IMG/VR virus record: IMGVR_UViG_3300021256_000098
DNA length: 64,000 nucleotides
Direction: 5' to 3' (one strand)
Source of the DNA: a virus
Shown: positions 51,101-53,220 of the stretch, in pieces
How positions within the stretch are numbered: position 1 is the first letter of the stretch
How the letters are laid out: every line of letters starts with the position of its first letter
Translations under genes and position numbers: made by a program
Notes under the pieces: model-generated
Database searches by the model: none
Told to the model about the DNA's origin: nothing
The model's input: only the letters and a program-made list of their open reading frames with translations

Positions 51101-51628
51101 ATGATTGAAAGAAAATCAATAATTGCCTCTACCCTTGGCGTTCAAAATCATGGTGGCAGTGGTGGAGATGTAGATTTAAGTGAATACAGGAAATATGTAG
51201 ATCAAGATGTGATTGATGCGGCACTGACTGCGAAGGTGACGGCATTAGAAGATAAAGCCGAACGCTTTGTTGTACATTGTACTGCCTCTTCTATCCCGCC
51301 TTTTGGAGGAGCATTTGATATTGCTACTGATAAATCGTTCAATGATATATTATCTGCATACAACAGTAATAGAGAGGTATGCGCTATTTTGACGTCATCC
51401 GCAATGCAAGGTGTTGCATTCCTTACAGGCATTGCTCCGGATGCTGCTATATTTTACACTCTCATTACTTTAGGTTCGCAAAGCAATCTTATGTACTTAC
51501 TCGTTTGTATTAGTAACGATAAACCGTTTGGCGTATTGATGTCTGCAACATATGATGATACTGATATTTCTAATCGCGTTTCCGCACTGGAAACCGCGCT
51601 GACAGGACTAGACGAGGTGATCGGATGA
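51101..51628 (+). CDS. hypothetical (175 aa)
   Basis: ORF preceded by the palindromic motif. Confidence 0.45.
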   Translation: MIERKSIIASTLGVQNHGGSGGDVDLSEYRKYVDQDVIDAALTAKVTALEDKAERFVVHCTASSIPPFGGAFDIATDKSFNDILSAYNSNREVCAILTSSAMQGVAFLTGIAPDAAIFYTLITLGSQSNLMYLLVCISNDKPFGVLMSATYDDTDISNRVSALETALTGLDEVIG

Positions 51629-53136
51629 GTACATATGTTGAGCGTATTCAAGCGCAGATTGATAAAGCGAATACTGCAACGGGAAAAGATGATTCCACGC
51701 TGGTACAAGCCGTTCAATCGCTCGTCGACGGCTACGGTGCAGGCGGCGGCGATTCCGGGGCGGAAGATATGCTGAAAGGCTTGATCGAACGCTCTGCAAC
51801 GGAAATCACGATCCCAAACGGTGTGACGAGCATCGGGGATTATGGGTTTGCATATTATTCCGGCCTGACCAGCATCACGATCCCGAACAGCGTGACAAGC
51901 ATCGGGAGTAATGCGTTTTTTAACTGTGCAAAATTAGCTAGTATTACGATCCCGGGCAGTGTGAAAACCATCGGAACCTTCGCATTTCAAAGGTGTTCAC
52001 AACTTGCCAGCGTCACAATCCTGAACGGCGTGACGAGCATCAAGGATTATGCGTTTTACAACTGTGCAGAATTAGCTAGCATCACAATTCCGAACAGCGT
52101 GACAAGCATCGGGAGTAATGCGTTCAAGGGTATCAACGCGAACGCCGTAATCACTTGCAAATTCGCAGAAGGCGCGGTGTCAGGTGCGCCGTGGGGTGCG
52201 CCAGACACGGTTCAAATTATTTACGAACGACGTGTATATACTGTATATTTTTATAACGGTTCTACGCTGTTACAGACGGTTGAAGGAGTACAAGCAGGAG
52301 GAACGGCGACTTATACCGGGGAGACCCCGACAAGGACTGGCGTGGAGAACCCTGAGGACTATTCGTTCAGCGGATGGTCGCCGTCTAACACCAACATCCA
52401 GAGCAACACATCCTGCTATGCACAGTTCAATTATACTGGCGTGCCGGAGACCATTACGGATAGTTGGGACGACATCATCGCGGCGGTCAACAACGGGACC
52501 TATGCCAGCAAGTACAGCGTCGGAGACACCAAGCAAATCGACCTCGGCACGGAGGGTATCGTGGCTATGCAGATTGCGGCCATCGACACCGACGCGCTCG
52601 CCAGCGGCAGCGGAACGGCGGCCATCACATGGATTTCGCAGCAGCTTATCGCTACGAGCCATCGCATGAACCCGGCCAGAGCCGCAGACCCGGAGGATTC
52701 CTCCAAGTATCAGGAGGGTACGGGAACCATCGGCGGCTGGGAAAAGACGGAGATGCGGAGCTGGCTGAAAGAAACGGTCAAGCCGCTTATCCCGGCGAAC
52801 GTATTGGCAGCCATCAAGCCCGTAACGAAGTACAGCAGGATTTACGACACTTCCGGCAGCGCGGTGAACAACGTCACCAGCACGGAGGATGTATGGATTC
52901 CGTCGGCCAGAGAGGTCGGCTTCACCGGGTACGAGACAGAGGGACCGACCTACACCGGGCTGTTTACGGCCAATGCAGACCGTATCAAGAGCAAGACAGG
53001 CGCGTCCAGCGCCTTGTGGTGGCGGCTGCGGTCCGCTTCCGGAAGCGATACCTTCGGTAATGTGCATTCGGCCGGCTCCTATATCAGTTACAGCGCGTAC
53101 TACTCTGGCGCGGTGGTTCTCGGCTTCTGCATATAA
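51625..53136 (+). CDS. BspA-type leucine-rich-repeat protein with a Listeria-Bacteroides-type repeat and a GC-rich C-terminal domain (WWRLRS-containing)
   Basis: At least 4 LRR_5-like repeats (ITIPNSVTSIGSNAF...), YTVYFYNGS...GETPTR repeat. GC rises to ~60% in the last ~900 bp. Confidence 0.65.
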   Translation: MSTYVERIQAQIDKANTATGKDDSTLVQAVQSLVDGYGAGGGDSGAEDMLKGLIERSATEITIPNGVTSIGDYGFAYYSGLTSITIPNSVTSIGSNAFFNCAKLASITIPGSVKTIGTFAFQRCSQLASVTILNGVTSIKDYAFYNCAELASITIPNSVTSIGSNAFKGINANAVITCKFAEGAVSGAPWGAPDTVQIIYERRVYTVYFYNGSTLLQTVEGVQAGGTATYTGETPTRTGVENPEDYSFSGWSPSNTNIQSNTSCYAQFNYTGVPETITDSWDDIIAAVNNGTYASKYSVGDTKQIDLGTEGIVAMQIAAIDTDALASGSGTAAITWISQQLIATSHRMNPARAADPEDSSKYQEGTGTIGGWEKTEMRSWLKETVKPLIPANVLAAIKPVTKYSRIYDTSGSAVNNVTSTEDVWIPSAREVGFTGYETEGPTYTGLFTANADRIKSKTGASSALWWRLRSASGSDTFGNVHSAGSYISYSAYYSGAVVLGFCI

Positions 53137-53193
53137 TCCGCAAACCCCTAATCTGGCTCCCTTTGTGGGGCCAGATAGGATTTGTCGGCATCC

Positions 53194-53220
53194 TTTTTTT
53201 TTTTTTTTTTTTTTTTTTTT
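53194..53220. repeat. 27-nt poly-T homopolymer preceded by a 7-bp hairpin (atctggc...gccagat)
   Basis: Read directly from the sequence. Lies between the LRR gene and gene 53255. Confidence 0.9.

Follow-up and report, generated by a model that had tools for sequence, protein, structure and literature searches.

A recombinant phage gene with a diversity-generating retroelement-type variable region and a length-variable poly-T tract in a ~108 kb phage-plasmid

Architecture and composition of the gene

We analysed a stretch of 64,000 nucleotides from a virus (IMG/VR record IMGVR_UViG_3300021256_000098; hereafter the window, whose numbering and plus strand are used unless stated otherwise), focusing on a gene at 51625-53136 that encodes a protein of 503 aa. 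The window belongs to a phage-plasmid of ~108 kb, as its genes are also found on contigs of 108,841 and 107,489 bp, and this phage is seen again in many assemblies, from sheep rumen among others. The protein consists of an N-terminal adaptor, a BspA-type leucine-rich repeat (LRR) region, a Flg_new-like domain and a DUF6273 C-type-lectin domain, which ends in a variable region (VR) of the kind found in targets of diversity-generating retroelements (DGRs). An inverted repeat and a run of 27 T follow the stop codon. The original prediction, made from the DNA letters without database searches, had described the gene as a moron encoding an LRR surface protein.

The first ~45 aa (MSTYVERIQAQIDKANTATGKDDSTLVQAVQSLVDGYGAGG; 51625-51759) form an adaptor that is kept before unrelated C-terminal domains. 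The BspA-type LRR that follows (51793-52134; aa 57-170) is built of 69-nt repeat units and matches Pfam LRR_5 with 126.8 bits against a gathering cutoff of 27.7 (E 6e-37). The number of repeats differs among close relatives (contigs are designated here by L numbers), as proteins that agree completely in their C-terminal half and VR are 480, 503 or at least 562 aa long (L025, L031); this points to unequal recombination among the 69-nt units. The LRR assignment of the original prediction therefore stands, whereas the Listeria-Bacteroides repeat (Flg_new) that it also named falls below threshold (12.1 bits against a cutoff of 27, E 0.22). The corresponding segment is a Flg_new-like beta domain of 49% GC at 52228-52437, and some homologues carry PF09479 or PF18998. 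The C-terminal domain, which the original prediction described as containing WWRLRS, is DUF6273 (52438-53133; Pfam E 1.6e-11). An AlphaFold2 model of the last 232 residues has a pLDDT of 97.7 and shows a C-type-lectin fold. Neither a signal peptide nor a cell-wall anchor is visible in the protein sequence, and a consensus scan found no promoter-like site before the gene.

Upstream lies a gene for a 175-aa protein (51101-51628), the C-terminal 137 aa of which are common to a 464-aa repeat-bearing, fibre-like protein of L004 (7032-8426; 89% aa identity). The two window genes meet in an ATGA junction, in which the ATG of the target gene overlaps the stop codon of the 175-aa gene and leaves no intergenic space; the same junction is present in L004. 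A PHROGs search returned no functional label for the target, for the 175-aa protein or for p107, a small protein encoded downstream. An SPP1-type holin gene is located upstream of the target gene. The claim that the gene sits between a holin and an endolysin thus holds for the holin, whereas the downstream endolysin is putative, with a weak Peptidase_C39_2 match (E 2.2e-4) below the cutoff.

The target gene has a GC content of 54.5% (65% at third codon positions, GC3), compared with 39.8% for the window and 39-41% for the flanking genes. GC rises stepwise, from ~50% in the N-terminus and LRR and 49% in the Flg_new-like part to 59.8% (GC3 77%) in the last 699 bp. The GC jump predicted within the gene is therefore real, with its ~60% portion covering the last ~700 bp instead of ~900 bp. 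The raised GC continues into the p107 gene (50%) and the start of the gene after it, which encodes a CBM5/12 protein.

Variable region, inverted repeat and empty DGR slot

Two homologous proteins (P0001 and P0002) are near-identical to the target from residue 200 to ~463, and their last ~40 residues diverge sharply. Among the window, L016 and L017, only 24 of 767 sites (3%) vary upstream of this region, compared with 44 of 128 (34%) within 53004-53128. These last ~125 nt align without gaps to the template repeat (TR) of the DGR in L046, and the columns that vary across five VRs of close relatives fall largely on the adenines of that TR (30 of 32 adenine columns vary, compared with 18 of 93 others; Fisher p = 3.5e-14). 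The VR is positioned on a C-type-lectin fold at the C-terminus, as expected of a DGR target protein, and DUF6273 has been described as a C-type-lectin DGR-target domain with a C-terminal VR (PMC11792537; PMC10743442; bioRxiv 10.1101/2024.10.15.618418). It ends in a GC-rich stretch resembling an initiation of mutagenic homing (IMH) site, GGCGCGGTGGTTCTCGGCTTCT, which carries four substitutions relative to close relatives and is followed by an inverted repeat, as in other DGR targets. Judged by these sequence patterns, the last ~125 nt of the gene behave as a DGR-type variable region.

The inverted repeat 3' of the VR (53138-53188) forms an imperfect stem of ~20 pairs, whose core at 53151-53176 reads ATCTGGC-T-CCC, TTTGT and GGGGCCAGAT. 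It contains the 7-bp perfect repeat ATCTGGC/GCCAGAT (53151-53157 and 53170-53176) of the original prediction, which extends to 10 pairs with one bulge; this hairpin is genuine, although it does not abut the T-tract, from which 17 nt separate it. A hairpin is found at a fixed distance after the stop codon in the window, L011, L012, L014, L015, L017, L046 and L047. An RNAalifold consensus of the eight loci has 13 pairs, seven of which show compensatory double changes. In characterised DGR targets, a GC-rich inverted repeat lies downstream of the IMH, and its structure matters while the stem sequence may vary (PMC3240598; PMC5758913). The window hairpin, as predicted from its sequence, matches this element.

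We then compared the region with relatives that carry a complete DGR. In these (L046, L047-L050), the order is target gene with VR, hairpin, terminator, Avd, TR, reverse transcriptase (RT), terminator, p107, CBM5/12, holin and lysin, and a clear terminator marks each edge of the cassette. L046, a 40-kb contig assigned to a metagenome-assembled genome of an uncultured Clostridia from rabbit, was the only relative recovered by a scan of genome contigs. Its TR and VR are 91% identical, with mismatches at TR adenines except for the final one, which is in the IMH-like end; Avd and RT genes are followed by p107 and CBM5/12 homologues, a holin-like gene and a lysin gene. Four more contigs (L047-L051) repeat this order, and their target shows an N-terminal hint of BppU_N. 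L014 carries a complete DGR as well: its TR (9775-9896) and VR (9140-9261) are identical at 108 of 122 positions with 13 of the 14 mismatches at TR adenines, and an Avd-like open reading frame (ORF) and an RT with a YMDD motif come after the TR/VR pair.

Homology between the window and L046 stops at 53177 (L046 5339) and restarts at 53252 (L046 7501). Thus, a junction of 74 nt (53178-53251) stands in for a terminator-Avd-TR-RT-terminator block of ~2.2 kb. No repeat of 52850-53193 that could represent a TR occurs anywhere in the 64 kb window, no ORF in the window other than that of a tail protein contains a YxDD motif, and no RT was found within about 10 kb past each end of the window, a region reached by walking with window proteins. 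Searches for the 3' end of an L046-type TR gave no match in IMG/VR. When the 3' end of the window VR was used to look for a cognate TR, none was found in IMG/VR, and JGI metagenomes returned one chance match, on an unrelated contig of 56% GC. Among thousands of RT homologues, the best 120 (at least 68% identity to the L046 RT) included none on a contig matching those of this phage in length.

The arrangement without a DGR is already present in the ~51% GC phage L011/L024/L026, where the tract reads TTTTGTTTTTTTT and where p107 and the sequence flanking the tract match the window at 98-100% identity. Seven or more assemblies (the window, L001, L002, L003, L025, L027 and L031) have exactly one VR, whereas their T-tract lengths differ. 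The VR thus appears frozen here, and we judge that it is probably not being actively diversified. However, the backbone of this phage occurs with three or more VRs (that of the window, that of L016 and that of L028), so the VR may have been diversified in the past or on occasion, or phages with a DGR may have recombined with this one repeatedly.

Downstream of the junction are the genes for p107 (53255-53578; 107 aa) and for the CBM5/12 protein (53582-53998; 138 aa), which is always paired with p107. The p107 gene belongs to an imported block, is 98-100% identical to L024 at the nucleotide level, and has its homologue directly after the RT gene in DGR-bearing relatives. We considered whether p107 could be an Avd protein and rejected this, because p107 is acidic and without a Pfam match and the true Avd lies upstream of the TR in relatives. 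In relatives, the p107-CBM5/12 pair (L046:7444-8253; L047:9236-9988; L051:1588-2343) always directly follows the DGR RT and precedes the holin and lysin genes, and it persists where the DGR is missing; it might be a so far overlooked accessory of the tail or lysis module.

Mosaic ancestry, the T-tract and the phage-plasmid setting

The region can be traced to two types of higher-GC phages. One match, to the 53% GC phage L004, runs over window positions 51301-51800 and so spans the C-terminal portion of the 175-aa gene plus the opening ~60 codons of the target; its identity per 100 nt is 87-99%, in most cases at least 94%. In L004, the same two-gene unit follows the endolysin gene, and the LRR protein ends right after the LRR. 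Positions 52537-53536 are 81-100% identical to L024 (~51% GC) outside the VR and the T-tract. The L024 match begins at ~52237, the left edge of a block common to L011/L024-type phages, and its identity varies along the block: 61-77% in the Flg_new-like part (49% GC here compared with 59% in L024), 81-97% in DUF6273, 62-72% in the VR and 98-100% in p107, after which it decays inside the CBM5/12 gene, where the right-hand recombination junction falls (~53640-53900). The intragenic GC step (~52440-52540) coincides with a change in relatedness, so the prediction of mosaic acquisition from higher-GC donors within a single ORF was correct, with the breakpoints between the L004 and L024 identity blocks located inside the ORF.

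The adaptor is shared with other genes. It is 100% identical in L004/L005, ~88% identical in a 294-aa protein of L033 that represents an alternative cassette at the same locus, and 58% identical in L006-L010, where it starts a 199-aa protein encoded after a collagen-like fibre gene inside the tail cluster. It thus precedes three unrelated C-terminal parts, and each time the gene overlaps the stop codon of an upstream fibre-like gene. In L033, which has the same backbone, the segment corresponding to window 51625-53998 (L033:373-2418) encodes the 294-aa adaptor protein with its unrelated C-terminus and then a 383-aa metallophosphoesterase-like protein; this locus is without the p107 and CBM5/12 genes and without the palindrome that precedes the endolysin gene in the window. 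At the other end of the protein, homologous C-type-lectin tips terminate proteins of 883 to 2222 aa encoded after Prophage_tail genes in IMG/VR phages, one of them with a weak BppU_N match. Against GenBank phages, megablast of 50000-55000 gave no match and tblastn of the target protein matched in the LRR part alone; the endolysin gave no match when used as an IMG/VR query. In two samples, the target gene forms a short stand-alone contig ending near the gene borders (L003, 1627 bp; L017, 1642 bp), which would fit either several genomic contexts of the gene or heterogeneous flanks in the communities sampled.

The T27 homopolymer lies exactly where originally reported (53194-53220), with 57 nt separating it from the stop codon and 34 nt from the ATG that follows. 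No other A/T homopolymer of at least nine bases exists in the 64 kb, and the one further run that was flagged is C8 at 38921-38928. At the homologous site, the run is T7 in L017, T8 in L028, T4GT8 in L011, L024 and L026, T15 in L030, T16 in L025 and L027, T18 in L031, and T22 in L001 and L002. The tract therefore ranges from 7 to 27 among isolates, in agreement with its predicted hypermutability. Among contigs with an identical VR, lengths of T16, T16, T18, T22, T22 and T27 were observed, as is characteristic of a hypermutable homopolymer. Because all contigs with T16 or longer that include upstream sequence carry the exact VR of the window, the VR appears static while the homopolymer drifts. 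The tract is intergenic, so that it is not part of a coding frame, and no flanking -35/-10 pair was found; these results speak against its proposed role as a phase-variable spacer. In the predicted RNA fold, AUCCUUUUU base-pairs with AAGGAGGAU, which belongs to the ribosome-binding site of p107 (fold z-score -2.05). An exact search with the intergenic motif found nothing in JGI metagenomes and just the contig of L011 in IMG/VR, and the whole window gave no Rfam match.

Other parts of the window are consistent with the phage-plasmid assignment or add repeats of their own. A maintenance module at 55142-59336 comprises a Rep3_N initiator (55142-56695, minus strand), iterons of 21-22 bp (56929-57118), ParA (57550-58311) and ParB (58308-59336). 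An 818-aa protein (9911-12367) with a PF05183 (RdRP) match represents an RNA polymerase of the YonO-like, single-subunit kind. The closest cultured relatives are Thomasclavelia phages TR-TP1 and TR-TP2, at 40.6% aa identity, together with Enterocloster phage PMBT24 and SPbeta. A 23-bp palindrome, CTTCTGTGACATTATCACAGAAG, is present in six copies where none is expected by chance (51058-51080, 54010-54032, 55031-55053, 55075-55097, 55119-55141 and 59457-59479), three of them at 44-bp spacing between the endolysin and Rep genes. It is found in contigs of the same backbone and not in donor-type phages, and may be an operator or a terminator, or else a promoter element used by the RNA polymerase that the phage encodes. 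The copies at 51058 and 54010 were considered as boundaries of the target cassette; we dropped this idea, as the palindrome is a backbone element that also occurs elsewhere and is absent from the donor phages.

Two different GC-rich tandem arrays with a 44-bp period occupy 1-132 and 1395-1543. Contigs L001 and L002 begin at about window position 1489, inside the second array, indicating that such repeats break assemblies. The ORF at 60164-61141 contains ~29 tandem units of 15 nt (60412-60846; 19 overlapping 165-nt copies) that encode pentapeptide repeats; its L033 homologue matches Pentapeptide_2 and DUF7666, and L002 ends there. Finally, a 1161-aa tail-fibre-like protein (46407-49892) is encoded with an internal duplication (46851-47380 and 48285-48814; 73-79% identity), a third, diverged copy of which is found in the gene at 38212-39501.

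Probable function of the gene and alternative explanations

Taken together, we consider it probable (roughly 0.75) that the gene encodes a modular phage receptor-binding (tail-fibre-tip) protein that was built by recombination, whose tip is a DGR variable region that a retroelement once hypermutated, and whose Avd-TR-RT block is gone. The receptor-binding assignment is based on the adaptor shared with tail-cluster genes and from the C-type-lectin tips on large tail proteins. In such a protein, the ~45-aa adaptor would couple the target to the upstream fibre-like gene, the LRR could be an internal spacer or a secondary binding module, and the DUF6273 C-type lectin would be the ligand-binding domain. 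The block that starts at ~52237, takes in the hairpin, the T-tract and p107, and ends within the CBM5/12 gene would have come from L011/L024-type phages of ~51% GC, in which the Avd-TR-RT block is already gone, so that the VR, the hairpin and a short T-run remain. The T-run probably began as the U-tract of a terminator at the cassette edge and then grew by replication slippage from ~T7-8 to T16-27, and would now be at most a leaky, length-variable terminator between the receptor-binding gene and p107, CBM5/12 and endolysin.

Several observations weigh against parts of this interpretation. Virion association and receptor binding are deduced from synteny and domain logic, PHROGs assigns the target no function, and the cassette is located between the holin and putative endolysin genes, outside the tail cluster. 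At 17 positions that are not adenines in the L046 TR, the window VR has a different base, which means that the L046 TR is not its cognate. The RT and TR searches along the ~108 kb genome covered all but ~26 kb (approximately 72-98 kb on the window scale), which could hold a non-adjacent DGR. With respect to the T-tract, the consensus terminator scan made no call there, the strong stem (53138-53188) stops 5 nt short of the run, the stem that does abut it (GGAU/AUCC) has just 4-5 pairs, and descent of the run from a particular terminator depends on a weak TTGTCG(G/C)C resemblance. Homopolymer lengths from short reads are also imprecise, which makes the exact tract length in any one assembly uncertain.

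The original prediction offered a different account, in which the gene is a lysogenic-conversion moron that places a BspA-like LRR adhesin on the lysogen, with the poly-T acting as a phase-variable element or an unusually long terminator. Its foreign GC and LRR_5 domain are real, the locus is swappable, as the L033 cassette shows, and lies outside the main tail cluster between the holin and putative lysin genes, and the T-tract does vary in length. However, a moron would be an autonomous unit with its own promoter and terminator and a product acting in the lysogen, and what fits this is just the foreign GC and the swappable locus. The protein shows neither signal peptide nor cell-wall anchor, and no promoter-like site precedes its gene, which is translationally coupled through the ATGA junction to a fibre-like gene, shares its adaptor with tail-cluster genes and has a C-terminal half that is a DGR target and forms the tip of very large tail proteins. 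The T-tract follows the stop codon and is neither coding nor a promoter spacer. We thus regard the moron account as very unlikely. A role for the tract alone is easier to entertain, since T16-27 is confined to the lineage with the cassette between holin and lysin, the run is the only long homopolymer in 64 kb, and AUCCUUUUU is predicted to pair with AAGGAGGAU; the expanded tract could then be a selected device instead of a neutral scar of slippage, either a tunable terminator controlling how much transcription continues from the receptor-binding gene into p107, CBM5/12 and endolysin, or a spacer that modulates this pairing with the p107 Shine-Dalgarno sequence. The pairing would be equally possible with T7, though, and the fold z-score reaches only -2.05, while the consensus scans called neither a terminator nor a promoter at the tract. 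Homopolymers beyond ~10 nt expand and contract without selection, and we consider a selected function unlikely. That T27 is instead an assembly or sequencing artefact is hardly credible: contigs L003, L016, L029 and L030 do break at or beside the tract and short-read lengths of homopolymers are unreliable, but at least 12 independent contigs, which come from various studies and were made with various assemblers, have a T-run at this site between unique flanking sequences, which limits the uncertainty to the exact length.

The VR could also still be diversified, by a non-adjacent DGR elsewhere in the ~108 kb genome or in trans by the DGR of a co-resident prophage whose TR and IMH are compatible. 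Phage DGRs can have non-adjacent targets up to ~50 kb away, and avd-TR-brt work in trans (PMC5758913). Consistent with such activity, the hairpin and VR framework are intact, an L046-type TR aligns without gaps, at least three VRs occur on one phage backbone, and the ~26 kb mentioned above would offer room for a DGR. On the other hand, the VR is identical in at least seven independent assemblies from several samples while the neighbouring T-tract varies, none of the best 120 RT homologues is on a contig of matching length, the inspected flanks beyond the window hold no RT, no TR-like copy was detected in IMG/VR or JGI metagenomes, and the IMH-like stretch carries four substitutions. Ongoing diversification is therefore doubtful, and we rate it as quite unlikely. 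A more elaborate version would have the apparently orphaned target, with its intact VR framework and hairpin, re-diversified in trans by a co-resident L046/L047-type prophage, while the poly-T separately acts as a length-tunable terminator into p107, CBM5/12 and endolysin. Judging from the sequence features at hand, this combination is a long shot; if true, the length-tunable terminator would link receptor-gene expression to lysis.

The closest known parallels to the target are in Faecalibacterium prophages Lelie, CP11, Roos and Pioen (PMC11792537) and in the 'tgt2' targets of gut phages nd4/nd12 (PMC10743442). These likewise end in a DUF6273 C-type lectin with the VR at the C-terminal end, share the phage origin and presumed receptor-binding role, and use an AAC-rich template as in L014 and L046. 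Unlike those systems, the window has no Avd-TR-RT cassette beside the gene or elsewhere in its 64 kb, its combination of adaptor, BspA-type LRR and Flg_new-like domain is not among the architectures described, and its carrier is a ~108 kb phage-plasmid that encodes a YonO-type RNA polymerase. The Mtd protein of Bordetella phage BPP-1 (PMC3240598) also combines a C-type-lectin fold with a C-terminal VR, and its target site has a GC-rich VR 3' end followed by an inverted repeat (a hairpin/cruciform downstream of the IMH) whose structure is kept while its sequence varies, as here. DGR-less DUF6273 variants in which the target is retained and Avd-TR-RT is absent have been described as well; compared with these, the empty slot here maps to a 74-nt junction holding an expanding poly-T, and the target has moved into a phage of much lower GC. 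The LRR region resembles that of BspA-type proteins (PF13306, LRR_5) in its five to six repeats of 23 residues, but the window protein is without a signal peptide or anchor, and its repeat number varies among isolates. Also comparable is the N-terminal DUF6273 of the Thomasclavelia ramosa IgA peptidase (PDB 9qa6; PMC12402451; 18% identity), a bacterial secreted protease without a VR.

Both DUF6273 DGR targets and DGR-less variants are already described, and the present case does not overturn current understanding. It does change the annotation of this gene, which is a probable host-range determinant instead of an LRR surface protein or a moron of virulence type. The locus also provides a natural example of a short, terminator-type T-run that has grown into a hypervariable homopolymer that breaks assemblies, and of the transfer of a DGR target module between phages that differ strongly in GC. 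Lastly, it exemplifies the absence of a DGR cassette with the target, the hairpin and the flanking genes kept, which helps to set the minimal requirements of a DGR target site and to find orphan VRs in viromes.

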